A stretch of DNA of 23,664 bases from a virus (IMGVR_UViG_2663763326_000004:1-23664); one strand, 5' to 3'. Counted from the first letter of the stretch, positions 619 through 16,411 are shown. The notes: generated from the sequence alone by a model not told the origin. Numbers and translations are program-made.

Positions 619-1242
619 TCACTCATCATCTTCTGTTTCGTACTCCACATCAGAAAGCCTTACCTCAAGCTCCAAAGACGTCGTGAAGCCGCTATTATTG
701 AGAAAATGTGTAACCTTAGTGATGGTCCAGTCCTGCTCGTCTATGACGCGCTTAAAGCCTGACACTTTAACCGGTGTTTCCGTGTAAATATCTGCCCGTC
801 CGGTAGCCAGGCTGATGGAGAACTCTGCTACACCCCGTTGCAGTTTATCCCACTTCGCCTGAGCGGCACGCATGGCCTGTGCTTTCGTGGCATATACCGT
901 GGTCAGGGCAAAAACGTTGTCAGCCTCACCGGCCATGTATTCACCTTCGCGCGCTTCCGGTACTTTTGGCGCTTTCTTCTGCCTGACCGGTTTCGCTTTC
1001 GGGTGCTCCAGTGCGCGCAGGTGTTTCTCTTTCTTTTTGCGTTTCAGTTTTACCTTCTGCTTTTGCGGCTTCGGGTCTTTGGTGTGTAACCACTTTGCCG
1101 TTACGCCGGTGTAGGCTCCACGGTCAGCAATCGCAAAATGATGACGGTCGCCGTCGCTGCGGGTGATGGTGACCTGCTGGATTTTTTTACCGCTGGCCGT
1201 CACCCCCTGCCCCGCTTGCGTATTTTCATGAAAGGAGATCAC
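619..1242 (-). pseudogene. D: Tail protein D (late control gene D), C-terminal fragment, separated from its N-terminal half by the IS insertion
   Basis: The ORF runs from the IS junction to a stop at 619. Its first codon is a GTG formed partly by IS-terminal sequence, and its position between U and ogr matches P2 gene D. Confidence 0.8.
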
Positions 1243-1350
1243 TCAATAACTTCCATCGAGATCGGGTAATAACATTTGAACAGATCGCTGAATAACATCG
1301 ATGGAGATCACTTTTGACTCATTTTGTTATTCAGTGATCTCCATCAATGT
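1229..1350. repeat. IS21-family left terminal repeat region (multiple transposase-binding repeats)
   Basis: A terminal GGAGATCACTCAATAAC is followed by an internal inverted copy GTTATTCAGTGATCTCC and by ATCGATGGAGATCAC. Confidence 0.55.
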
Positions 1351-1409
1351 TATTGGAACTTCACAGGTGTGTTGATCTGTATCTTTTGCCATTCCGGTAA
1401 AGGATACCT

Positions 1410-2951
1410 ATGCCAACAGTTCCAATTTCTATGAGAAAACTTAAAGAAATTCTTAGGCTTAAATACGGTGTTGGACTCAGCCATCGACAAATTGGTCGTA
1501 GTCTTGCAATCTCCCCTTCCGTTGTATCCAGATATGCTAATCGGGCGGCTCAACTTGGCATAAAGCAGTGGCCCTTACCTACAGGATGGGATGATACAAA
1601 ACTAAAACATGCGTTCCTTCAGACCCAGGTTAAGATGAAGAAGCACTCTCTGCCTGACTGGGCTACAGTACACCGGGAACTGCGTAATAAATGCGTGACG
1701 CTGCAGCTACTCTGGGAAGAATACTGTGAGCGTAATCCAGGCGGTTTTTACAGCTATAACCATTACTGCCGGATGTACCGTGAATGGCTCAAAACCACTT
1801 CACCATCAATGCGTCAGGTACATAAAGCTGGCGAAAAACTTTTCGTTGATTACTGTGGACCTACCGTTGGCGTTACCGACCCTGAGACCGGAGAAATAAG
1901 AACTGCTCAGGTCATCGTAGCTGTTCTCGGGGCATCAAGTTACACATGGGCAGAGGCCACCTGGTCTCAGCAGCTTGAAGACTGGGTGATGAGTCATGTT
2001 CGCTGCTTCCAGTGGTTGGGTGGCGTTCCTGAACTTGTTGTTCCGGACAATCTGAAAAGCGCCACATCCAGGGCATGTAAGTATGATCCTGACGTTAACC
2101 CTACCTACCAGCAGATGCTTGAGCATTATAATGTCGCAGTTTTGCCTGCGCGGCCACGTAAACCGAAAGATAAAGCCAAAGCTGAAGTTGGCGTTCAGGT
2201 TGTTGAACGCTGGATCATGGCCCGAATCAGGCATGAGATCTTCTACAGCCTTGCATCGCTTAATCAGCGCATTCGGGAGTTGCTGGAAAGACTGAATAAC
2301 AAAATAATGCAGAAGTTGGGTTATTCACGTGCAGAACTCTTCATCCAGCTTGATAAACCCGCACTGAAGCCTCTTCCTGAAGCCAGTTACAGTTACACCC
2401 TGGTGAAGAAAGTCAGAGTTCATGCCGATTACCACGTGGAAATCGACAAACATTACTACTCGGTTCCATGTTCGCTGTTAGGCCAGCAACTGGAAGCATG
2501 GATCTCCGGAGAACTGGTAAGACTCTTCAATCAGGGGCAGGAGGTTGCTGTGCACCCGCGCAAGCGTACTTATGGCTACAGTACCCGCAACGAGCACATG
2601 CCTGAAGCTCATCGACAGCATGCCACCTGGACGCCAGAGCGTCTTCTGGAATGGGCGGGGCACATAGGCAGTGAAACTCATAGTTATGTGCTTCATATAC
2701 TGAACTCTCGTCCACATCCGGAACAAAGCTATCGCTTCTGCCTTGGACTCCTGAACCTTCATAAAAAATACAGTAAAGCCAGACTTAATGCAGCATGTGC
2801 AAGAGCTCTGAAAACAAAGGTATGGCGTCTGTCAGGTATTAAATCGATCCTGGAAAAAGGTCTGGATAAACAACCTGTTCAGGATCCAAAACCAGATCTG
2901 TTATCCACGATGGAACACGAAAACGTACGCGGCAGTGAGTATTACCACTGA
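1410..2951 (+). CDS. istA: IS21-family transposase IstA (513 aa)
   Basis: N-terminal helix-turn-helix region followed by an integrase-like catalytic core. It is immediately followed by istB, the typical IS21 arrangement. Confidence 0.9.
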   Translation: MPTVPISMRKLKEILRLKYGVGLSHRQIGRSLAISPSVVSRYANRAAQLGIKQWPLPTGWDDTKLKHAFLQTQVKMKKHSLPDWATVHRELRNKCVTLQLLWEEYCERNPGGFYSYNHYCRMYREWLKTTSPSMRQVHKAGEKLFVDYCGPTVGVTDPETGEIRTAQVIVAVLGASSYTWAEATWSQQLEDWVMSHVRCFQWLGGVPELVVPDNLKSATSRACKYDPDVNPTYQQMLEHYNVAVLPARPRKPKDKAKAEVGVQVVERWIMARIRHEIFYSLASLNQRIRELLERLNNKIMQKLGYSRAELFIQLDKPALKPLPEASYSYTLVKKVRVHADYHVEIDKHYYSVPCSLLGQQLEAWISGELVRLFNQGQEVAVHPRKRTYGYSTRNEHMPEAHRQHATWTPERLLEWAGHIGSETHSYVLHILNSRPHPEQSYRFCLGLLNLHKKYSKARLNAACARALKTKVWRLSGIKSILEKGLDKQPVQDPKPDLLSTMEHENVRGSEYYH

Positions 2952-2962
2952 TACGGGATCCA

Positions 2963-3712
2963 ATGATGAATCATCTTTACGAACAACTGACCGCACTTAA
3001 ACTCACCGGCTTCCGTGATGCGCTTAAAAAGCAACTTGCTCAACCGGGCACATACCAGGAGCTGGGCTTCGAAGAACGCCTGTCATTACTGACAGCAGAA
3101 GAACTAACCTGCCGTGAAAACAGGAAGGCAGAGCGTCTGATCAAACATGCACGGTTCAGACTTAATGCTGAGTTATCAAAGCTGGATTATCGTAACAATA
3201 GAGGGCTGGACAGGGCCCTCATCCGTTCACTCAGTCAGGGAAACTGGTTAACCCTGAAACAAAATATTTTACTGACCGGGGCCACCGGCAGCGGTAAAAC
3301 GTTCCTGGCATGTGCACTTGGTCATAATGCCTGCCGACAGGGATACAAGGTCTACTATTATCGCCTTAAAGCGCTGATGGAACAGTGCTATCAGGGGCAT
3401 GCTGATGGAAGATACAGCAAACTTTTGACCAGGCTGAATAATAGCGATCTGCTGCTTCTGGATGACTGGGGGCTGGAACCTCTCTCATCAGAACAGCGTA
3501 GCGACCTGCTGGAAATAGTGGATCTGATGTACCAACGAGGCTCAATCATCGTAGTGAGCCAGTTGCCGGTGGAAAACTGGTACAAAATGATCGGAGACTC
3601 CACACATGCGGATGCCATCCTAGATCGACTGGTTCATGGCAGTATCAAGATCGAACTTAAAGGAGAATCAATGCGGAAAATACAATCTCCGTTGACCGAA
3701 GGAGATCAGTGA
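2963..3712 (+). CDS. istB: IS21-family helper ATPase IstB (249 aa)
   Basis: Walker A motif GATGSGKT and Walker B motif LLLLDDWG, in a DnaC/IstB-like protein directly downstream of istA. Confidence 0.9.
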   Translation: MMNHLYEQLTALKLTGFRDALKKQLAQPGTYQELGFEERLSLLTAEELTCRENRKAERLIKHARFRLNAELSKLDYRNNRGLDRALIRSLSQGNWLTLKQNILLTGATGSGKTFLACALGHNACRQGYKVYYYRLKALMEQCYQGHADGRYSKLLTRLNNSDLLLLDDWGLEPLSSEQRSDLLEIVDLMYQRGSIIVVSQLPVENWYKMIGDSTHADAILDRLVHGSIKIELKGESMRKIQSPLTEGDQ

Positions 3713-3744
3713 AGGTAATTTAAAAACGGTTCTGTGAAAGTGAC

Positions 3745-3785
3745 ACGAACCGATCTCCATCGATGTTACTCACCGATCTCCTTCA
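3745..3785. repeat. IS21-family right terminal repeat region
   Basis: Two direct copies of CCGATCTCC (ACCGATCTCCATCGATGTTACTCACCGATCTCC) at the right IS end, inverted relative to the left-end repeats. Confidence 0.55.
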
Positions 3786-4368
3786 CGGTAATACGCACCG
3801 CTTTGAGAAACAACAATTTTCCCATTTTTACCGACACCTCACCGCCGTTGCGTTCTGCAAGACGGGTCAGGAATTTCGCATCAGACTCCTGCGACTGGTC
3901 GATGTGCGGGATTTTAATTCCGGCCAGTGACGGAGCGACACTGGCTTCCAGCCTGTTACGGGAGGCTATCGCCTCAACAATCGCACCGAGCGTGGTGTCA
4001 TGCCAGGAGCCTTCACGGCGGGAATTGAGCGTCCCGCGGAAATCTGCACTCCGGGCGCGGATGGTGACCACATCCGGCGCGCCCCGGTGTTCAACCTCAT
4101 CAACGGTGAATTTCCCTTTGCATACCAGGGCAAAACCTTTCCAGCCGATATACACCGTCAGGACAGCGCCACGAACCGGCAGCCCGACCTGCCCGTCGGC
4201 ATCGTTCAGTTCAATATCAAGCTGGTCAGCCTCAAAGCCCCGGTTATCCGTCAGGGTCATGCTCATCAGACGGTCACTGATATTGCCGGTAATATCCCTG
4301 CTGTCGAGCATCAGCATGTAATCCGGCGTCAGCGTACTGCCTGCATCAAATGTCAGTGCATCCAGCAT
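3766..4368 (-). pseudogene. D: Tail protein D, N-terminal fragment truncated by the IS21-family insertion
   Basis: Starts MLDALTFDAGSTLTPDYMLMLDSRDITGN, with its ATG overlapping the U stop (TAATG). The last few codons (KEIGE-stop) are read from IS-terminal sequence. Confidence 0.8.
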
Positions 4369-4861: not shown

Positions 4862-7309
4862 TTAACCGTCATGCATCATGCTGGCACGGGAGCGCGCACG
4901 TTTATCCCGCTCGTATTTTTCGAGCGCATCCTGTAACTGGCGGTCAAGCTGTGTCCCCGGCGCAGTACCACCCGTCAGGCTGATGTGATATTCGTTTTTA
5001 CTCTGGTCCACATAAGAGCGGCCAGCCGGTGCCGTGACCGGCTGATAAGTCTGATAGCCTGCATAAGAGCTGGTCGCCGGAATATAACCACCGGTGCCAT
5101 ACGTGGCGGCATGAGTTCTGGCGGCGGTCTGGTCAAGTGTGTCTGACTCTTTGTTGATAACACCGAGTTTTTCCAGTACCCAGTCAATACCGCTGCGCAG
5201 TTTGTTGAACGCATTAAGCGGCAGCATCAGCGCGTCAGCCAGTGCCTGCCCGAACATGACCCCCGTGTCACGGCAACTGTTCAGGGTGTCCTGAGTGGCT
5301 TTGACCGGGGCAATCAGGTTTTTAAACCACTGCCACGCGGCCTGTAACTTTTCACCCAGCCAGTCAAACACCGGCTTAAGTGGCGTGAACAGTTCCCCCA
5401 CCGGCGCAAATGCCACTTTCAGCCCTTCAACCACACCGCCAAAGAATGCGCTGACAGGCTCCCAGTATTTACGGATAAGCAACGCCCCGGCGACAATTGC
5501 GGCCACCACGGCCACAACCGGCCAGCTAATAGCCCCGATGGCGGTCATAACAGCACTGCCAACCGTCGTGAAGACTGCCCCCATTGCGCCTGCTGCCGCG
5601 ATGATGGCATTGATGCCGGTGATAACCGGCCAGGCTGCGAGGCCAATGGCACCGATGACACCAATCAGCGCCAGCGCGCCACCGGCAATGATGCCGATGG
5701 TTGACACCAGTGATTTGTTTTTCTGGATCCAGCCGTCGAGTTTTAACACATACTTTGTGGCCGTCTGCGTGAGCTTACGCAGCGCGCCTTCCTGCTGGTC
5801 AAACAGGTCAGTCCCCACCGCCTCATAAGCGGACTGAAACTCTTTAAAGTCACCGCCTAGGTTGTCCTGCATGATATTTACCAGCTCGGCGGTCTTCCCG
5901 TCTGAGGCTTTAAACGCAGCGGTCAGTTTGTCCAGCTTTCCGGTTGAGGCGGCAGTCATCAGCACGGCGGCGGCTGAGCTGGCCTCCTCCCCGAAAATAG
6001 TTTTCATGTATTCAGCCTGCTGGGCAGTACCGAGCCGGTTTTTCTCAAAACTGGCCTGCATTTCTTTCAGAATGGTAAATATTGGCCGGGTGTTTCCCTT
6101 GCTGTCTGAGGTTTTCACTCCAAGCTCTTTGAGTGCATCCCATGCTTTTCCCGTCGGTGCCTGCAGGCGGCTTAACACGGCACGGCTTCCCGTCCCCGCC
6201 ATTGAGCCTGTGATTTTTGCATCATGCAGCGCCCCGACCATTGCGGCGGTTTCTTCAATGCTGACACCGGCATTTTTTGCCACAGGTGCGGCATAGGTCA
6301 GCGCATCGCTCATGCCGTCAAAATCGGCGGCGGTTTTGTTCATCGTCATGGAGAGAACATCCCCGATATGAGCGACCTTATCGTTTGAAAGCTGAAAGGC
6401 GGATTTCATCCCCATCAGCAGGGCGGCGTTTTCTTCCATCGTGCGGCGGTTCGCCAGCGCCATATTCAGCGTGACCGGCGTTGCCGCCTGAATGGCATCA
6501 ACATCCCCACCCGCTTTCGCGATGATTATCTGTGCACCGGCCGCATCATCCGCCGAGGCGGCGGTATTGTCGCCGAGCTGGCGCGCCTGTTTGCGTAGTG
6601 CGGTCATTTCGGCGGAGTCTTTTGCCACTCCGAGCACGGCCTGCAATTCTGAGTTTTTCTGCGCAAACTCATAACCGGGCATCAGCAGCTTAACTCCGGC
6701 CATCGTTCCCGCCGCCGCAATCCCCACACCGGCAGCGCCCACCGAGGCCATATTTCCGGCCAGTTCCTTTCCGGCCTGATAACGCTGTTTTACTGCGTTA
6801 AGTTTTGCCTGTTGCGCACTGACACGCGCCAGCGCATCACGCTGACGGTTAAGCTGTGCGGTGGTTTCACTGATACGGTTTTTCAGTCCCTGCTCATCAT
6901 GTGCAAGATTGCGGGTATTAATTCCCACAGCGGCCAGTTCCCGCTGCTGGCGTTTAAGGGAATCTGTCAGGCGGTTATATTTCGCCTGTAAGTCCTCCGC
7001 CGCACGCTTTGCGGATTCCAGCACTTTCGCCTGAGCACGGGTCGGACGTTCAGTGTTTTTAAACTGTGTGGCAAGGGCTTCGGCCTCCTGCCGTGCCTTT
7101 TCAAGTGCATGACCAGTCACGGCGAGCTGTGCGCTGGTCTTGCGAAATCCCTCAATACGGGATGCGTGACCGTTCAGCTCGCGCAGTGATTTTTGTGTTT
7201 CCCGGATATCCCCCGACAGCGACTTGCTCGCTGTGCGGATGGATTTAAACGGGCGGGATGCCTGGTCAACAGCCCTGAGCAATACCTGTAATTTTACATT
7301 GTTACTCAT
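4862..7309 (-). CDS. T: Tail tape measure protein T (815 aa)
   Basis: Long coiled-coil N-terminal half and a Gly/Ala-rich hydrophobic segment. The 815-aa length matches P2 gpT and the start ATG overlaps the E' stop. Confidence 0.9.
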   Translation of the reverse strand: MSNNVKLQVLLRAVDQASRPFKSIRTASKSLSGDIRETQKSLRELNGHASRIEGFRKTSAQLAVTGHALEKARQEAEALATQFKNTERPTRAQAKVLESAKRAAEDLQAKYNRLTDSLKRQQRELAAVGINTRNLAHDEQGLKNRISETTAQLNRQRDALARVSAQQAKLNAVKQRYQAGKELAGNMASVGAAGVGIAAAGTMAGVKLLMPGYEFAQKNSELQAVLGVAKDSAEMTALRKQARQLGDNTAASADDAAGAQIIIAKAGGDVDAIQAATPVTLNMALANRRTMEENAALLMGMKSAFQLSNDKVAHIGDVLSMTMNKTAADFDGMSDALTYAAPVAKNAGVSIEETAAMVGALHDAKITGSMAGTGSRAVLSRLQAPTGKAWDALKELGVKTSDSKGNTRPIFTILKEMQASFEKNRLGTAQQAEYMKTIFGEEASSAAAVLMTAASTGKLDKLTAAFKASDGKTAELVNIMQDNLGGDFKEFQSAYEAVGTDLFDQQEGALRKLTQTATKYVLKLDGWIQKNKSLVSTIGIIAGGALALIGVIGAIGLAAWPVITGINAIIAAAGAMGAVFTTVGSAVMTAIGAISWPVVAVVAAIVAGALLIRKYWEPVSAFFGGVVEGLKVAFAPVGELFTPLKPVFDWLGEKLQAAWQWFKNLIAPVKATQDTLNSCRDTGVMFGQALADALMLPLNAFNKLRSGIDWVLEKLGVINKESDTLDQTAARTHAATYGTGGYIPATSSYAGYQTYQPVTAPAGRSYVDQSKNEYHISLTGGTAPGTQLDRQLQDALEKYERDKRARSRASMMHDG

Positions 7310-7785: not shown

Positions 7786-8304
7786 TCACAGGCCGATATT
7801 GCGGCGGTGTTGCTCCAGCCGGTCGACGCCGTTCACCTTCTCAATCATGTTGATGGTGTCGATTTCGACCAGCTCCTTACCGTCCATCGTCAGCCGGAAA
7901 TAGGTGCAGACCACGGAGATTTTCGACTCGGTGTCTTCTCCCTGTTTACCCTCTCCGGTGTCGATTTCTTTCTGACGTCCACGCATGACCACTTCGACGG
8001 CCACCGTTTCGCCGGTATCGTCACGCTGGTAAGAGCCTGCAAAACGAATCGGCACGGCATCCACGCCGGTTGCGGCGTAAAGCTCCCAGATAACCGAATC
8101 CGGGAAGCCCCCGAGCGACCACTCCATTGACAGCGCATCGTCATCAAGGCCGAGGTCTACCGGTGCGCTGCCGTTCATCCCCGCACCGCGATAGTTTTCG
8201 AGCTTACGGGTCAGTTTTGGCAGCGTGACGGACTTTGCAACGCCCTGATAGCTGTAGCCGTTCAGAAAGACGTTCATTAACTTGAGTTTGCGCGGCATTG
8301 CCAT
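7786..8304 (-). CDS. FII: Tail tube protein FII (172 aa)
   Basis: 172 aa, directly downstream of FI, matching P2 gpFII. Confidence 0.9.
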   Translation of the reverse strand: MAMPRKLKLMNVFLNGYSYQGVAKSVTLPKLTRKLENYRGAGMNGSAPVDLGLDDDALSMEWSLGGFPDSVIWELYAATGVDAVPIRFAGSYQRDDTGETVAVEVVMRGRQKEIDTGEGKQGEDTESKISVVCTYFRLTMDGKELVEIDTINMIEKVNGVDRLEQHRRNIGL

Positions 8305-8316
8305 CGGTCAGGCTCC

Positions 8317-9507
8317 TTAATTGCTGTTAACCGAGGTGACCAGATTTGCCAGGTATTTATCGGTAATACGCTGGCGCAGGGTCAGGTTTTCGAGAGGAGG
8401 CACCGGGGTATAGTCGTAGTCGATATACAGTTTGCCGGCCTTGAGGGTTTCCGCATCGTTGGATTCTTCGCTAAACCAGCAGGTCGCATCCACGATATAG
8501 CCGTTTGTTTTCAGCTCACGGAATTTGGCATTGATGCCGTCAACGATGTCGCGAATCAGCGTTGCGGTGATGGGCTTGTCCACCGCCCACATGTGCGCCT
8601 CAGCCATCGTGTCGGCCAGCACCTGCGCGGTGCGGGTGTAGTTTTCAAAGAGGAACAGCGGGTCATCAGAGCAGGTACGGTTACCCCAGAAGCGGAAACC
8701 GTCACGGCGAATCAGCGTTGTGACACCTGACTCGTTCAGCAGGTCAGCATCGGTGCCGGACTCCTGCAAATCCCAGAATACGGACGCACTGATGCCGGTA
8801 ACACCGTTTACCCCGACGTTGGACAGCGTTTTATGCCAGCCCTGCTCCTGGTCGATTCTGGCACGCAGACCCAGCGCACGGGCGGTGGCATACGCGGTGG
8901 CGGTGGTACTGGTGACCGTATCCCATGCGAGGAAATCCGGCCAGATTACCATCAGCTCACGCTGGCTGAAATTCTGGCGGTAGGCTTTCACCTCGGAAAT
9001 GGTTTTACAGCCCCATGCGCTGATATACCCGAAAGCGCGCAGCTTCTGGCAGACTGATGCCAGTGCAACAGCCACCTCTTTGGTGTCCAGTCCCGGCACA
9101 CCGAGAATACGCGGTTTAACACCGGTTACCGACTCTGCCGCCAGCAGGGCTTTCAGTCCGGTATACTGACCGTTTTCGTCAGTGGTGCCGATGATATTGG
9201 AAACGGTCTGCGCGAGTTTCGTTTCTTCGTCGTCGCCGGTGCCGTCTTCCACACGCACGACAACGGTGACCGGTTTTGACTGGTCAGCGATGGCCTGCAG
9301 CGACGCCGCCAGCGTGCCTTTTTTACCGGCCTTTGCAATTGCGCTCTGCACATTGGTAATCAGCACAGGTTTATTGAGGGGGAAGGTTTCCGCATCCGCA
9401 TCGCTGGCCGTGCAGACCATGCCGACAATGGCAGTGGATACAGTGGAAATGACGCGGGTGCCGTCGTTAATCTCCAGCACCTGCACGCCGTGATGATAGT
9501 CACTCAT
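8317..9507 (-). CDS. FI: Contractile tail sheath protein FI (396 aa)
   Basis: 396 aa starting MSDYHHGVQVLEINDGTRVISTVSTAIVG, with a GGAG ribosome-binding site 8 nt upstream. Matches P2 gpFI. Confidence 0.9.
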   Translation of the reverse strand: MSDYHHGVQVLEINDGTRVISTVSTAIVGMVCTASDADAETFPLNKPVLITNVQSAIAKAGKKGTLAASLQAIADQSKPVTVVVRVEDGTGDDEETKLAQTVSNIIGTTDENGQYTGLKALLAAESVTGVKPRILGVPGLDTKEVAVALASVCQKLRAFGYISAWGCKTISEVKAYRQNFSQRELMVIWPDFLAWDTVTSTTATAYATARALGLRARIDQEQGWHKTLSNVGVNGVTGISASVFWDLQESGTDADLLNESGVTTLIRRDGFRFWGNRTCSDDPLFLFENYTRTAQVLADTMAEAHMWAVDKPITATLIRDIVDGINAKFRELKTNGYIVDATCWFSEESNDAETLKAGKLYIDYDYTPVPPLENLTLRQRITDKYLANLVTSVNSN

Positions 9508-9534
9508 CCGTTTAACTCCGTGGTTAATGGGTGC

Positions 9535-9600
9535 AACTATTTTCTGTTGTGCAGAGCATGAGACGCTATTTGACCTGGCTGGTCAGTGGATGAAACAACA
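9535..9600 (-). promoter_or_regulatory. Candidate late promoter for the FI-FII-E-T-U-D operon (Ogr-dependent, P2 P_F-like)
   Basis: P2 late promoters carry an Ogr dyad (TGT-N12-ACA) centred near -55. Upstream of FI there is a partial match, TGT-ttcatccactga-cCA, and an A/T-rich -10-like AGAAAATAG about 25 nt before the ribosome-binding site. Confidence 0.3.
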
Positions 9601-10081
9601 GATAAAGAAAAGGCGAGCAATCAGCCCGCCTGCCTTGATTTGTACTCTTTCAGTTTCCAACTGACAAATTACGTAACCAAAACTCTGTCAAATCTGACAG
9701 TCTGCTTTGAGCGAAAAACAGGTATTGAGATACATAATAAATCATCTCAATTTTCAACTTTTCTGCCACTTAACATCTTGAGTAGTAAATAGTACAAAAC
9801 TATCTACTGCCGAAGGGCTCTAGGAAGTATGGTTTCTGCACAATAAGACTTATATCGGCTCACGGGGAGCCAAAAGATATTCATTGCCTAGAATTTGCAG
9901 ATGAGGTGGTAATCTGTACTGGGGCGGTACTGCAACAGCTATGTATATTTCCACTGCGGTAATCTGTACCAGCAGGTAGAAGCTGTTATACATCACCGCC
10001 CCTGTAGTGCTAATCCGGAGATAGCACTACTCTCATCAAGGCTTGTTCTTCCATAAACCGCAATAGGTGTTAGTTTTAGCC

Positions 10082-10939
10082 TTAATGTAAAATTAACAAT
10101 TGATTCAGACGCTTATGTAATTTTGTGGTTCTAAATGTATGATGATCGTAACTCATACGCATATAACTATCTATCTCATCCAGACGCATGTTCTTATTTA
10201 CAGATATATCAGTTTCATACATCATTTTTAATATACATGTAAAGTCATGACCATTGCATATAGAAAAATGATCTGGCGACATTAATTCTAATTTACGCAT
10301 TTCATTATATAAATTTTTCGCATTAAAATCCTTATCAGTACGACTCCTGCTAAGCACATGATTTATATATTTGGTTTCATCAACTACAACATCTGTCCTG
10401 TTAATACTTACAAAATTCCTGTAATTCATTCCTTTGAAATTAAGATTGCTATGTGTAAGATAATTGTACCATTTGAGAAGTCCGATTTTATAGCATGCAC
10501 AAAGGATGTTCATCTTTACATCCTGACAGAATATATCGGCCAATTCCCCTTGAATTAATTTTCTATCTGTATGTGACATAATGAATTTATCAACCGCACC
10601 ACCTTTTACTAACATCATTTCAAGGTCATGAGCATCAGTATAAAAAATCCCCTCGTGATTTATTCCGCTTAACTCATCAAAGTCCGCGTCACATACACCA
10701 TACACAGCATTATTACCTGCACGACGTAATTGACTAACAGCCAATATTACTTCACGTTTTCCATTTTCAGGTGATTCATAAATGATTCTATTATCAAGCC
10801 GATATGCATTGAAAAATCGGATATCTGAAATGCCCTCAACCACAATCAATATACAACGTTGATACATTTCATTTCTGAATAAAAGCATCATACTACTCAA
10901 CCAATCATCTTCGCGAACAGCATTGCGTAATGACATCAT
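10082..10939 (-). CDS. DUF4435/TOPRIM-like (OLD-family-type) putative nuclease, AriB-like effector of a PARIS-like system (285 aa)
   Basis: N-terminal ILIVVEGISD (TOPRIM glutamate) and downstream VYGVCDADFDE (DxD metal-binding motif). GC content is very low, and the ATG follows the upstream ATPase stop with no gap (TAA ATG). Confidence 0.7.
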   Translation of the reverse strand: MMSLRNAVREDDWLSSMMLLFRNEMYQRCILIVVEGISDIRFFNAYRLDNRIIYESPENGKREVILAVSQLRRAGNNAVYGVCDADFDELSGINHEGIFYTDAHDLEMMLVKGGAVDKFIMSHTDRKLIQGELADIFCQDVKMNILCACYKIGLLKWYNYLTHSNLNFKGMNYRNFVSINRTDVVVDETKYINHVLSRSRTDKDFNAKNLYNEMRKLELMSPDHFSICNGHDFTCILKMMYETDISVNKNMRLDEIDSYMRMSYDHHTFRTTKLHKRLNQLLILH

Positions 10940-12184
10940 TTACTCGTTTCCTTCTGAAAGCTGTTGGCTTTCATTTCTATTTCTAATCATTTCATATAGA
11001 TCGTATGTTAATTCCCAATTCTTACTAATTACTTGTGGTGAATGAGTAGCAATAATGACCTTTTCATACTTGTTAATCTTTTGTATTTTTTTGAGAGAAT
11101 CCAAGAAAGTTTGTTGCCAGGCGACATGTAATGATATTTCTGGCTCGTCTATAAGAATTACTTTTTGTGAAACAAAATCGAAAATCAAATTAAAAAGAAG
11201 AACTATTTGGTTCTGTTCACCTGATGAAAGCAAATTACGATCAATAACATCGCCATTGTGACTTTTGAAATAAAATCCGTTATCTCTATCAATCATCACT
11301 TTTTTAAAAGCTAAAACCTTTTCTTTCAAAATTGATTCAAATAAATCAATTTTTTGATGTAATGTCTGAAACGGTGACAATTTTCCAAGGGCATCTTCAA
11401 TATATAGATCCAACACACTTAGATATTCATTGCTACTATAAAAACTTGTGCTTTTTTGAGGCATTAGCTCGTTATCAGCCTGAATAAGGCCATAACGCAT
11501 ATAATGTCGACGTTTATCTTGAATACCATTTAAGCGATCTTGAATATTTTCTGATGAAAATCGTTTTGATTGCTCTAAACGCTCAAATAATCGAATAGGA
11601 AATGTAGCGTCTAATTTTTGTGATAATGCAGCGGAATCATCTTGTGCATTTTTCATTAAATATTTTAATTTTCTAGCACATAAGTCAATGACTGTTTCAT
11701 CAACAGCTTTGACTTGTAATCGATCTGCACATATAAAAGATACGTCTTCTTTCGATGTAATATGACTTAACACATCCGAAGATAATGGTTTATCAGTTCG
11801 TAATTTTTGTTTTGGTTTAACATCCCCCCTATGCAAGCTTACATAAAATAACTCTTCCATAATAGATTCATCTGTCTGTAACTTGAGTCTTTCTTCCGTT
11901 CTGTTTCCTGAGCTATTATCCAGATGATTCAATATTAAACCATCTTTATTGGTGTCATGAGTAATTGAAACAGAGCCACCTTGAAAATCAATTTTAATAA
12001 AATCAAAATTAAGTTTACAGAGAGCATTTAATTCATTTGTAAGAATACTATTGATGATTTTAAGAATCATTGTCTTACCATATCCATTTGGACCAGTAAG
12101 CATAGTAATTTCATTGTTATCCAAGGGAATTTCATAATCAAGGAGACCAAATAGTTTTTTTACTTTTAAATGTATCAATTTCAT
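10940..12184 (-). CDS. ABC/SMC-like ATPase (AAA_15/AAA_21 type), AriA-like sensor of a PARIS-like system (414 aa)
   Basis: Walker A GPNGYGKT, an ABC-signature-like LSSGEQ, Walker B VILIDEPE and an H-loop IIATHSP, with a long helical insertion between the nucleotide-binding halves. AT-rich codon usage is unlike the flanking phage genes. Confidence 0.75.
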   Translation of the reverse strand: MKLIHLKVKKLFGLLDYEIPLDNNEITMLTGPNGYGKTMILKIINSILTNELNALCKLNFDFIKIDFQGGSVSITHDTNKDGLILNHLDNSSGNRTEERLKLQTDESIMEELFYVSLHRGDVKPKQKLRTDKPLSSDVLSHITSKEDVSFICADRLQVKAVDETVIDLCARKLKYLMKNAQDDSAALSQKLDATFPIRLFERLEQSKRFSSENIQDRLNGIQDKRRHYMRYGLIQADNELMPQKSTSFYSSNEYLSVLDLYIEDALGKLSPFQTLHQKIDLFESILKEKVLAFKKVMIDRDNGFYFKSHNGDVIDRNLLSSGEQNQIVLLFNLIFDFVSQKVILIDEPEISLHVAWQQTFLDSLKKIQKINKYEKVIIATHSPQVISKNWELTYDLYEMIRNRNESQQLSEGNE

Positions 12185-12199
12185 ATCAACCTCGCAGAC

Positions 12200-12280
12200 G
12201 ATGAATTATAACCATTTATTACATGGCGCATATGAAATGCAATATATCATTGTCATGAGTTGCATTTCAAACATATGCCC
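12200..12280 (-). promoter_or_regulatory. Candidate sigma70 promoter(s) with an embedded inverted-repeat operator, upstream of the ATPase gene
   Basis: On the coding strand, TTGAAA, an 18-nt spacer and TATATT, followed by a second perfect TATAAT about 20 nt before the ATG and a GAGG ribosome-binding site. The inverted repeat GAAATGCAA-N17-TTGCATTTC brackets the first -35 and -10 elements. Confidence 0.4.
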
Positions 12281-13214
12281 CAACATCAATGCTAAATCCG
12301 TGATTAAAATTAATAAACTTCTGGTTTTTGCAAATAATTTCTTGCCCTAATAGTTTGGAAATACCTCTTTTAAATTTATAGTGAATAATATTACGCCCAT
12401 TTAGTTCTCTCTTTGCAGAACTGAACATGTCGGGAGCTACTGTGTGGAGAAACACTGAAACGATCGTTAGTGAATATTTGCACACTGGTGATAGTACTAA
12501 ACAGCCCTTTGGTCATGTCCGAAAAATAGTGACTCGTACAACATGATCGATGTGATAGCATTTATGACAGTGAAACATAACAATCACCTTTGAACATTTT
12601 CCATACGTGCATTATACCTATTAAATCTAAACAAAACAAATAGATATAAAATATTCATCCGCGTATCTTCATGCTCTCATATACCACATACGGGAGCCTT
12701 AACATCAAGTACTAAGCACGTCGTGAAGCTGTTTCCGTTAAGACGACTTTGCACTACTTGACTGATTAGCCATGCCTGCTTGTCTATCACACATTTAAAG
12801 TTTTTCATCGCTAACGTAGTTAGTCCATTCCCTTGAATGGCGTTTTACCAGTCTATATATGACAAATATCGTACTTTTTCCACATTCAGTCCAATTCATT
12901 CACCGCTCCCGATTCACCTACAACACCCTCTCAACGACGTTCTCTGTACCTGTAATACCGGCGCAAATTGCGTCGAAAATGTCGTTCTGCATCGCATAAA
13001 CCTTCATCAGATTTGGCCTACAATGCAGCGAATAGTCTGAAATTAAAAACCGATGATGATGGACTGTACTGTTCATGCAAGTCTGGTCGCTCTGTGCCTC
13101 ATCAAGGAATGAATAATGATCTTGGCGACGTCTACTCTTGGCACAGAGCGGACTGTCAGATTAGTTTTTACTCTGTGCCATAGATGAGTAATCTCACACC
13201 AGATCTAATACAAT

Positions 13215-13793
13215 TTATTGCGGCATTTCCGGCCATTCTATATCCGGAGCATCTTCCGGCTGAACGCGATTCAGTAACACACGGTATTTTTTCCAGTGTG
13301 TCAGGCTTAACTTTTCTTCCTCGGTAGCCATATCTAAATCGACAGCATCCTGCAGCGTGGCAATGATTTCACCTGCATATGCAATCTGCTCTTTCTTCTG
13401 AGACTCCGCCGCTCTGACAAGCGCATCACGCTCTGCATTCTCATCATTCACCCACGCATTTCCGTTCCATTTCTGATAATCCCCCTCCGGGGAAATGGCT
13501 GTCACGTCTGGAGGTAATGCGCCAAGTTCAGAAATATAAATGGCTGCTCCCGTTTTCGTTTCGTAGACAGTCTTTCCGCGATGATCTTCCATCAACTCCC
13601 ATTTCATTTCATCTGCATTGAAAACGGCTGCATAACCAGCAGGAATATCAGGTGGTGCAATATCTGTACTGTTTGCAGGCAGGCCAGTATACGGCGGAAT
13701 ATATGCATCACTTTCGCCAATAAACTCATTGGTTCCATCAAGTAAATTGAAAACGCGGATAGTTTGTGCTTCTGCACTCATTCTGAAAGCCAT
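13215..13793 (-). CDS. G: Tail fiber assembly protein G (192 aa)
   Basis: Directly downstream of H with its ATG overlapping the H stop (TAATG). Size and position match P2 gpG. Confidence 0.8.
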
Positions 13794-16411
13794 TATGCAA
13801 GCCTCACAATATAGTTAAATGCGATGTTTTTGACGGTGTTTTCGGTATTACCAGTAGCATTTACGGTAATGGAATGCCCGTGTGAGCCAATAGCAACAGT
13901 GTGTGAATGTGCACCAATACCAACAGTATGGTTATGTGCTCCAATGTCGACTGTATGTGCATGATTGCCTGATGAACTTGTAGTCGTAGCACCTTTATCA
14001 CTTCGCGGAACACCATAATCTGCACCGCCTGATTGCACGCTCACAGCAAAACCGACGGTATGTGTATGATTGCCAGAAGTATTGGTTGATTTTGTGCCGT
14101 GGTTAAACGTACTGACTGTTTTTGTCCCGTAATCAAATGAACTGGTCGTTTTCGTTCCTAAGTCCGTATTTGACGCACTGGCGCTGTGAGTATGCGATTT
14201 AATCCCGTCCTGTTCCTGTGACAATACGGCACGCCCACTGGCGGGTTTGCCCTTGATTGTCCAGCCGCGCATATCAGGAATAACACCAGAAGGATAGGCA
14301 ATAGCCAGTTTCGGATATGCAGCCTTATCAAACGTCTGCCCCTGCATGATCGCATAGCCTGCAGGTGGTGTATCTGATGGCCACGGCAGCGGAACACCTG
14401 GCGGAAACGCTTCAATATCTTTCGTCCCGTCAAAGGTTACGCCGTTAATTGTCCTTGCCGTTTTCAGCTTTGTTGCTGTAGCAGCATTGCCGGACAGTTC
14501 GCCTGAAAGACCGGCGCTGAAGGTTTGTTTCGCCGCCCATGTCTGGGCTTCGTCAATAATTGGCACACGTCTTGTGGTGATCGTGCGACTTCCCGGATTT
14601 CCTGAAATACGCACCATAAAAAAGCGGTAGTTCGCTTTACTTACAGTGCTGCGCCATACATGCATTGAGCGCCCCGCACCGGAATCATCACTCGGACCAA
14701 CTGAGATGTTTATCAGGTTGCCATCAATGACGCCCCAGTCCATACCTTCGGGAATGTTGGTCATGTTATCAAGCCGAACGGTTATCAGACTGCCCGGCAC
14801 AAAGTCGTAGGTCTGCCAGTCCAGGCTGGAGAGTTTTGCCACTGCACCGCCGATACCCAGATTCAGGGGAAGTGAATACGAGGTGTAGACTTCCCGCCAT
14901 TCGCTCCACGAGCTGCCGGTATAGACGCGCTCAAACGTGCGACCTTTAAGGGTTGCACCTGTTCCGGCAGTTGTATAACGCTGCCATACGTTAACACCAT
15001 CAAAGCGCCTCAACACTTCCAGAATCCCGAGGACTGTCACGCCGTTTCCGTCCAGTATTGGACCGTTGGTCGCTTTACCTGTAACGCTGTAAATACCTGG
15101 TGAAGTCACCTCATTCAAATCCCCGTCGTAATAACGACTCTCTGACTGATGACCGACTCTTAACCACGGTTCCCACTGTGGATTTGATGCATCCCAGCTT
15201 GCCGCAAGGCAGCGGACATACATATTTCCACGGCGAGTGGTATAACGTTGCGTTCTTCCATAATTCCCGCCTTCGAGGATCTCAAGCATCCCCTGAGCAA
15301 AGCCGCCTTCCTCTGGATAATTGCGTTCATATGAAGCTATAGCCGAGCTACTGTTACGCCATAAACCAAGATGCTCGGCGGCTCCAAGCGTATTCAGGTC
15401 TATAGTCGTACTCAAAGGGCGGGTAGCAGATTGAGTGTGACGCCATACGCCCCACGGACCATCAGTGCCATTCCACTTATTGGCGAGTTTACGCATGTAA
15501 ACATTGCCGTCTCTCGTGGTAAAGCGTTGCGTACCTGCAAAATTGCCGGCAGCAAAAACCTCAAGCACACCGACAGCATTATCTTCCGGGAAATTTTTCT
15601 CCAGTGTTGCGTTAGTTGAGGTAGCTTTAGACCAGATCCCCAGATAAGCCTTAACGGGACCAAATGTATTCAGGTCGGCATCAACCGGCATTTCGCCATT
15701 GTTTTTCATAAACGTCAGACTGGTAACGCCAACATTGTCCAGAAAAGCTGATTTATCCTGGATATCTGCACCATTCTGATTTTTCGCCAGACGTGAATTT
15801 GCGTTGTCATTTGCTGCCTTGACCGCTTTTGGCGTTGCCGCCAATGACTCACTGGTGCTGTTTGTTGCACTGCTTAACTGAGTAAAACCTTTTTCTGTCA
15901 GCGTGGCGTCAGGATGGCGGCGGGACTGCTCATGTTCTGCGATTTTGTCATCGACGTAATCCTGCGTCGCCATCACTGTGCTGGCATCAATACTCAGCTC
16001 AACGGACGCCACGTTACTGACAATAATAACCATGCGGCAGGTCTGCGCACGCCCGGAGCCTTCAGCGAGTTCAGGCTTATAGCTTTCTGCCATGTTGGCG
16101 ACCGCAATCAGTGTTCCGGCATCGTCATACAGACCAAGCTCACGCATCCAGAAGCCGCCCACTTCGGGCGGTACAACCAGTTCAGCCACGATATAGTTTT
16201 TATTCTTATTATCCACGCTGACTTTATTCAGAGCGTGACGCCAGACCTCATGCACCAGTTTCGTCTGACCGGCATCCGGCACCGGCAATTTGCCATTACC
16301 GTCACCCACGGCCATTGCAGACAGGTTTACTTTTTTCCCGCCGGGGACAGTGGCGGCTGCCAGCTTCGCGGCTCCGGCAGTAGTGATAACGGTTTTAAAT
16401 TTCGTGCTCAT
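13793..16411 (-). CDS. H: Tail fiber protein H (872 aa)
   Basis: Conserved P2-type N-terminus [30 protein letters not shown]. The central region has three tandem repeats of about 60-70 aa and the C-terminus has repeated HxH motifs (GNHTHT, GNHAHT, AHNHT, AHSHT, SHGHS). Confidence 0.9.

Follow-up and report, generated by a model that had tools for sequence, protein, structure and literature searches.

The repeat-dense segment just downstream of the cargo operon of a P2-like prophage is, very probably, a scar: a fragment of a lysR gene that was carried into the prophage together with a PARIS defence cassette, that formed its hairpins after the gene had been inactivated and that has no dedicated function. 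The segment covers positions 9840-10040 of the 23,664-nucleotide stretch of DNA analysed here (IMGVR_UViG_2663763326_000004:1-23664; hereafter the window), all of which is P2-like prophage. A preliminary description of this DNA had offered several readings of the segment, namely a terminator cluster, a structured non-coding RNA, a recombination site used for cargo exchange or the remnant of a deleted gene. The last of these is the correct one, as 9747-10067 on the minus strand is a disabled 3′ fragment of a gene for a LysR-family regulator. The segment is an ordinary evolutionary scar, and not a new RNA gene, terminator or recombination site.

The spacer under study is 100% identical to that of Escherichia coli S65EC (NZ_CP036245). 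On the minus strand the genes run in the order H, G, an island of low G+C content, FI, and then the genes for the tube, the tape measure, gpU and gpD; the island between G and FI has a G+C content of 31-35%. The genes that define this setting, and the gene fragment itself, are as follows.

13793-16411, minus strand: tail fibre gene H.
13215-13793, minus strand: tail fibre assembly gene G, which is conserved and flanks the hotspot on the left (Pfam Caudo_TAP; RefSeq annotation).
10940-12184, minus strand: ariA, for the 414-residue AAA_15 ATPase of PARIS (Pfam AAA_15, 4.5e-20, and AAA_21; PADLOC AriA, E = 1.9e-25).
10082-10939, minus strand: ariB, for the 285-residue DUF4435 nuclease component of PARIS (Pfam DUF4435, E = 5.3e-25; PADLOC AriB, E = 2.6e-21).
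9747-10067, minus strand: disabled 3′ fragment of lysR, with codons from about 182 to 290 and, at 9749-9747, the original stop codon (tblastn, DNA alignment).
8317-9507, minus strand: tail sheath gene FI, which is conserved and flanks the hotspot on the right (Pfam Phage_sheath_1; RefSeq annotation).

The matches to both AriA and AriB profiles identify the cargo as a PARIS system in the G/FI hotspot, which is the Z/fun position of P2. Judged by its predicted products, an AriA ATPase and an AriB DUF4435 nuclease, the neighbouring operon is a PARIS operon with putative anti-phage activity. The stop codon of ariB occupies 10082-10084, so that the segment had been placed correctly as lying directly downstream of the cargo. 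The spacer between ariB and FI, which is 574 bp long and holds the whole of 9840-10040, has no RefSeq annotation there. An identical AriB protein occurs in more than 1000 blocks of the assembly index; the P2 context was the same in all 24 contigs read, and the spacer was the same in all 10 copies compared.

Some genomes with the identical AriB have ariA broken into two open reading frames of 122 and 277 amino acids (L012, 4755-6000 and 712-3128; L010; L013), and IS66 or IS21 elements lie in the adjoining tail genes of some (L012, L010 and L013 again); decay of PARIS, and of the prophage as well, is under way in part of the population. In the window, an IS21-family element at 1218-3794 (IstA 1410-2951, IstB 2963-3712) sits inside the baseplate hub gene gpD and cuts it into 3766-4368 and 619-1242, and the insertion is missing in an otherwise collinear IMG/VR contig (L021). 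A prophage copy with gpD so interrupted is probably incapable of building a tail. Upstream of ariA, the roughly 940 bp at 12185-13125 hold no convincing gene, with small open reading frames that have no Pfam match, and a good sigma-70-like promoter is found at 12270-12241 on the minus strand. The part at 12185-12970 accompanies PARIS at about 90% identity in a non-phage copy (L026, described below), whose 94-residue open reading frame upstream of ariA is shortened in the window.

The homology of the spacer with lysR is direct. Comparison of 9722-10081 with E. coli genomes by blastn found the 3′ end of an annotated LysR gene on plasmid NZ_CP010222 (76% identity over 96% of the query), and further intact copies reside on Enterobacter and Klebsiella plasmids, all plasmid matches being 75-76% identical. 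Identity to intact lysR at the DNA level is 76% over 344 bp (9725-10068), with the stop codon in the same position, and tblastn against the intact plasmid LysR WP_073519981 gave E = 7e-20 in two frames, with 60-71% amino-acid identity. The collinear part runs from codon 182 or thereabouts to codon 290, through the stop codon and on into the 3′ flank as far as about 9694. The fragment thereby contains all of 9840-10040, and it begins 14 bp past the ariB stop.

What survives is the C-terminal substrate-binding part, collinear through the stop codon and bearing disabling lesions. The 5′ 180 codons are gone, and with them the start and the helix-turn-helix domain that a functional LysR protein has, and the reading frame is broken by two stops (E257* and Q267*) and by two frameshifts, a 10-bp deletion and a 1-bp insertion. 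Among 120 database relatives, drawn from several genera, the LysR lineage is strongly conserved (81-98% amino-acid identity), whereas the nearest functional LysR, of M19 type, shares only about 60% identity with the fragment. Residues never seen in 121 family members stand at 31 of the 106 alignable codons, many of them at invariant positions, and substitutions are biased toward AT (33 GC-to-AT versus 14 AT-to-GC). By this comparison of sequences, 9747-10067 is a decayed lysR pseudogene fragment.

Two smaller observations concern the same reading frame. A 47-residue open reading frame at 9850-9993 on the minus strand is sometimes called as a gene (L015, 3636-3779); it is the LysR frame, opened by a new ATG (V210M) and closed by the first in-frame stop, and is thus an artefact of the pseudogene. 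A second and shorter lysR remnant, comprising the last 40 codons at 85% amino-acid identity, occurs in an island of E. coli M217 (L002, 5006-5125; about 170 E. coli genomes) and on K. pneumoniae pBio30 (L019, 4001-4171). This remnant is an independent truncation that adjoins a 372-residue protein with no Pfam match, and both remnants retain the lysR end that abuts the boundary palindrome described below.

Relatives of the fragment in other contexts demonstrate that it has moved with PARIS. A metagenome scan whose query was the sequence spanning the 10-bp deletion yielded two diverged copies outside P2. One of these (L026) is 92.8% identical to 12970-9694 and lies in a defence island with a STAND NTPase, a methylase-like gene, a DUF1281 gene and an MPTase-PolyVal gene. 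The other (L023) is 86% identical to 11893-9700 and is followed by a convergent TauE exporter gene, the product of which is 81% identical to the TauE found beside intact LysR on an Enterobacter plasmid. The ariB/lysR junction and the 10-bp deletion are common to the window and both of these copies. Because the same junction recurs in non-phage contexts, among them the native TauE-LysR locus, the fragment is best understood as a transfer scar. In addition, a prophage with a different P2 backbone (L014) differs by about 2% or more in the flanks and by only 12 mismatches in the block at about 9650-13500, from which it follows that the lysR fragment moves with PARIS as one module. The fragment is no component of PARIS itself, since AriAB of Pantoea, which is 61% identical, has no lysR piece; for this reason we rejected the idea of a PARIS accessory element. 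No further diverged copy of the fragment came to light, as a phage collection held no match to 9722-10081 and IMG/VR held the same lineage only. Nor did tblastn and blastn searches of 12100-13300 match AzlC, AzlD or the hydrolase, which would have marked a second scar at the other end of the cargo.

All four repeat features reported earlier exist, although their lengths, coordinates and register needed slight correction in places. The inverted repeat formed by GTAGTGCTA and TAGCACTAC around nine nucleotides is present, at 10004-10012 and 10022-10030, and is 9 bp long rather than 8. The long-range inverted repeat likewise stands with its first arm, GGGGCGGT, at 9921-9928, whereas its partner ACCGCCCC lies at 9995-10002 and not near 10005; the pairing lengthens to 12 nt at 92% complementarity. 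The direct repeat GGTAATCTGTAC is perfect, and the small hairpin is real, though its register had been misread, the actual stem being the 5-bp GGCTC-ACGGG-GAGCC. The hairpins were also correctly said to have no U-tract. The corrected features are listed here.

10004-10030, minus strand: hairpin A, a 9-bp stem of GTAGTGCTA and TAGCACTAC with a 9-nt loop (repeat search).
9921-10002, minus strand: hairpin B, long and imperfect, closed by GGGGCGGT and ACCGCCCC (repeat search and folding).
9857-9871, minus strand: hairpin C, GGCTC-N5-GAGCC (sequence and fold).
9908-9919, no strand: first copy of the direct repeat GGTAATCTGTAC (repeat search).
9958-9969, no strand: second copy of the direct repeat (repeat search).

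Alignment with the intact genes and with the two non-phage copies provides a history for each element. Hairpin A is already found in intact LysR genes, and was lost in the island copy L026 through two G-to-A changes. The ACCGCCCC arm of hairpin B came from derived changes at 9928, 9926 and 9924, with the 10-bp deletion having brought its partner adjacent, and this hairpin is missing in L023. Hairpin C arose by derived substitutions at 9869, 9868 and 9859; it is destroyed in L026 and absent from L023. The first copy of the direct repeat is a product of derived substitutions at codons that are invariant in functional LysR (C235 and S236). As changes of this kind hit codons that functional proteins do not vary, the repeats they formed arose after inactivation. 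A search with the conceptual translation for a closer intact LysR that already carries the hairpins came back empty.

Template switching can create hairpins, and there is a modest chance that both the hairpins and the direct repeat originated in short template-switch (quasi-palindrome) errors within neutral DNA. Such errors would account for how the repeats came about, and the pseudogene explanation can stand alongside them. The repeat-forming substitutions are indeed clustered: those at 9928, 9926 and 9924 produce a perfect complement to GGGGCGGT, six changes within eight nucleotides (9947-9940) make TATACAT, the complement of ATGTATA at 9987-9993, and those at 9917, 9913, 9912 and 9968 make the two copies of the 12-nt direct repeat identical. 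However, the ACCGCCCC arm needed two or more steps, as L023 has one of its three changes and lacks the others; hairpin C was altered on both arms; and the cluster at 9947-9940 is no collinear inverted copy of its partner. Overall, moreover, the content of exact repeats is within random expectation. In 2000 simulated random decays of the inferred ancestor, direct repeat content (8-mers) was matched 268 times and inverted repeat content 203 times.

Thus the repeats are not unusual singly, but as a set they fold far beyond chance. On the minus strand the 201 nucleotides reach -76 kcal/mol compared with -50.5 +/- 4.5 for dinucleotide shuffles (z = -5.67; none of 200 shuffles equalled it), on the plus strand z = -3.53, and the region ranks third among 470 sliding 200-nt windows taken over both strands. 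The two windows that fold better are 140-340 on the minus strand (z = -6.6), at and beyond the 3′ end of an ogr-like gene (319-600), and 1240-1440 on the plus strand (z = -5.8), at the left end of the IS21 element. We also simulated decay by inferring the ancestor from three intact genes and scattering 36 substitutions over it at random, their number and spectrum being those observed. These simulations gave -49.3 +/- 4.3 kcal/mol against the observed -74.1 (z = -5.8), and none of the 2000 reached the observed value, with the reservation that the tail is heavy, as the best of them came to -71.2. The outcome for the whole 321-nt fragment was the same. The matching segment of the intact gene folds like its own shuffles (z = -0.66 and +0.27).

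The fold has not been kept across the known copies. Its z is -0.6 in L023, the earliest branch, -5.4 in the inferred ancestor of the window and L026, -3.0 in L026 and about -5.6 in the window. On the branch to L026, 11 substitutions strike the stems without compensation and lower the stability to -55, just as expected from random placement (-52.3 +/- 5.4). Those on the branch to the window in P2, six in number, kept or raised stability beyond random placement (8 of 600, p ~ 0.013), so that in the phage a structured 3′ UTR may have been under a degree of selection. Covariation, proposed earlier as a check on the RNA reading, gave no compensatory signal when pairs were counted across seven sequences (0.125 versus 0.123 for shuffles; two double-sided pairs versus 2.8 expected), in a test whose power is low because only three independent lineages of the fragment were found. 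The preliminary description had named the absence of conservation and covariation across relatives as speaking against an RNA, and neither was found among these few sequences. In our reading the structure originated once, in neutral DNA, through chance or templated mutation, and is not generally maintained, with a weak hint that the phage lineage tolerates or slightly favours it.

These data bear on the suggestion that the ariAB transcript has co-opted the lysR fragment as a structured RNA at its 3′ end, where the stem-loops of the fragment would block 3′-to-5′ exonucleases or pause transcription, and so stabilise or insulate PARIS in the lysogen. We consider this quite improbable. It would be in keeping with the position of the fragment directly 3′ of ariB on the same strand, with the rank of the minus-strand fold, with the behaviour of the substitutions on the window branch, and with the building of structure after inactivation against an AT-biased decay that is expected to weaken folding, which no simulation reproduced; a selection bias attaches to such measures because the region was picked for its visible repeats. 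Arguing the other way, L026 lost hairpins A and C to uncompensated G-to-A changes as expected under neutrality, L023 has the same operon and fragment without the structure, no covariation is seen, and the Pantoea PARIS homologue does without any such element.

It is very improbable that the segment is a terminator cluster or holds a small non-coding RNA gene of its own, even though strong structure is predicted on both strands. Rfam 15 gave no gathering-score match in the whole window, and at E <= 1 the interval 9500-10150 attracted only spurious eukaryotic families; ARAGORN reported no tRNA, tmRNA or tRNA-like element. No promoter-like or terminator-like site occurs in 9840-10040, and the structure is not conserved, the fold being absent from L023 and in neutral decay in L026. 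Neither the terminator cluster nor the structured non-coding RNA proposed at the outset is supported for this segment. We likewise rejected a retron msr/msd RNA, as the adjoining open reading frames have no reverse-transcriptase domain and the whole region is collinear with lysR, and an integron attC-like or Xer/dif-like site, to whose consensus sequences no resemblance was seen by eye. The nearest terminator-like sites lie further along the spacer.

9685-9700, minus strand: weak terminator-like hairpin, CTGTCAGATTTGACAG followed by AGTTTTGG (terminator scan).
9611-9631, minus strand: strong terminator-like hairpin with a T-run, in conserved P2 backbone (terminator scan).

The second of these stands just upstream of the pF activator site (about 9576-9604), which we placed by offset from the annotation of P2 (NC_001895), where the activator site and the transcription start are both given. 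It probably insulates the tail operon from transcription of the cargo, and the two sites (9700-9685 and 9631-9611) are likely to be the ends of the ariAB transcript.

The true junction between backbone and cargo was found outside the repeat-dense segment, at a 34-bp palindrome that has an inverted partner on the far side of the cargo.

9694-9727, plus strand: right boundary palindrome, forming the inner end of the P2 Z region's right inverted repeat; backbone/cargo junction and native 3′ flank of lysR (alignments, motif search).
13126-13159, minus strand: left boundary palindrome, the inverted partner of 9694-9727, beside gene G (repeat and motif search).

The palindrome has the consensus CTGACAGTCCGCTTTGAGCGAAAAGCGGACGTTG, with a loop of GAGCGA in the R-type, to which 9694-9727 belongs, and of GTGCCA in the L-type, to which 13126-13159 belongs, and the inverted arms at 9691-9715 and 13138-13162 are 84% complementary. 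Homology with the P2 backbone, across 965 genomes, stops at about 9710-9721, and in other P2-like prophages and phages it ends at 9710-9731; in phages P2, Wphi, L-413C and others, the homology of the spacer likewise ends at the junction. Different cargos diverge within a few bases past the palindrome. The boundary repeats were reportedly anticipated in part by the Z-region study of Nilsson, Karlsson and Haggard-Ljungquist in 2004 (Mol Biol Evol 21:1), as judged from its title and GenBank records. In the GenBank records from that 2004 study the left inverted repeat is annotated in AJ512685 and AJ512676 and the right one in AJ512685, and the flanks in the window align with them. By this alignment, the flanks of the cargo are the Z/fun inverted repeats between G and FI.

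It had been suggested that 9840-10040 is itself the recombination site by which cargo is exchanged in the P2 hotspot, and that its repeats might mark the junction when prophages with other cargo are compared. The segment is repeat-dense and near the edge of the variable region, as this would have it, and yet the suggestion is hardly tenable. P2-like prophages with other cargo share the backbone to about 9710-9731 and nothing homologous to 9840-10040; the phage collection has no match to 9722-10081; the sequence is collinear with the lysR coding region throughout; and the conserved boundary consists of the palindrome at 9694-9727 and its inverted partner at 13126-13159.

In its native setting on plasmids, lysR has this same palindrome as its 3′ flank, and copies of it occur in several of the sequences collected.

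L001: 2932-2965 and 4104-4137.
L002 (M217 island): 4950-4983, 7084-7117 and 8109-8142.
L018: 3001-3034 and 5526-5559.
L026 (defence island): 8221-8254.

Palindrome copies bound single genes on a plasmid of E. coli M19 and in the M217 island, the latter with an Ag43 adhesin gene, and on an Enterobacter plasmid an R-type and an inverted L-type copy flank a LysR-AzlCD block just as they do the P2 cargo. A dispersed REP-like repeat was considered and rejected, as there are one to seven copies per genome, with a median of one, in 2568 of 5426 E. coli genomes. Covariation in the stem of the palindrome is weak (0.271 versus 0.236, with 39 of 500 shuffles as high), and so is the case for selection on its hairpin.

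Returning to the pseudogene explanation, we propose the following course of events. A PARIS (ariA-ariB) cassette would have inserted into lysR at the native TauE-LysR locus of an enterobacterial plasmid-type element, replacing the 5′ 180 codons. The ariA-ariB genes, the lysR fragment and the 34-bp palindrome 3′ of lysR would then have moved as a single unit, and this block presumably arrived in a defence island and also in a P2-like prophage, at whose Z/fun hotspot the palindrome from lysR coincides with the right inverted repeat. Freed of selection, the fragment would have gathered AT-biased substitutions and indels, and on one branch several hairpins and a 12-nt direct repeat may have formed by chance. 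Today the fragment is most likely transcribed only within an ariAB 3′ untranslated region of about 450 nt, in a transcript that would stop at the backbone terminators (9700-9685 and 9631-9611).

The scar itself carries little functional weight. It is a passenger, and it illustrates that a defence hotspot may show conspicuous hairpins and repeats without containing an RNA gene or a site. Nevertheless, because the 3′ end and flank of a recognisable gene were kept, the path of a single PARIS cassette can be followed across three settings, namely the native TauE-LysR locus (on a plasmid in the reference that has the intact gene), a defence island and a P2-like prophage present in many E. coli assemblies. 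A more far-reaching proposal is that the 34-bp palindromes are crossover sites, either site-specific or acting through short homology, that move defence cassettes among plasmids, islands and P2-like phages. We regard this as speculative and on the whole unlikely. If true, it would address the question of how P2 and P4 swap defences with unrelated mobile elements, which has been left open (PMC13586616), and the presence of boundary palindromes common to all these elements provides a concrete candidate mechanism for the trade of hotspot cargo. As a lesser alternative to this exchange route, the scar may have been co-opted as a 3′-UTR stabiliser of the PARIS mRNA.

Several known systems resemble parts of this locus. 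As with intrinsic terminators and REP-like stem-loops that stabilise mRNA, stable hairpins stand directly 3′ of an operon on the sense strand; here, however, there is no U-tract and no repeated family, and the hairpins are not kept in sister copies. LysR-type regulators (PF00126 HTH_1 and PF03466 LysR_substrate; the AzlCD-linked WP_073519981 and WP_086524865) are collinear with the fragment over codons from about 182 to 290, the stop codon and the 3′ flank, but the fragment is a pseudogene that lacks the helix-turn-helix and the start and has 31 residues never seen in the family. The adjoining operon agrees with the PARIS systems of P2 and P4 hotspots (PMC9122126) in its AriA and AriB profile matches and its position in the P2 hotspot, whereas 9840-10040 is no part of PARIS and has no counterpart in the Pantoea PARIS locus (61% identity).

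The window is also flanked in the manner of the P2 Z/fun inverted repeats (AJ512676, AJ512683 and AJ512685), at about 9633-9723 and about 13126-13235 around the cargo; these repeats lie outside 9840-10040, and lysR, in addition, has their inner palindrome as its 3′ flank, while cassettes on plasmids and in islands are bounded by it. Finally, most pseudogenes in P2 and P4 have been described as small intergenic remnants in defence loci, the residue of repeated recombination (PMC13586616). Our fragment resembles them: it is short, intergenic and unannotated, it derives from a gene with no part in defence, and the defence system next to it is intact. It differs in that the relic, at a position where RefSeq has no annotation, also folds unusually well, and in that its parent gene, donor locus and path can be named: lysR, carried from a plasmid-type TauE-LysR locus into both a defence island and a prophage.
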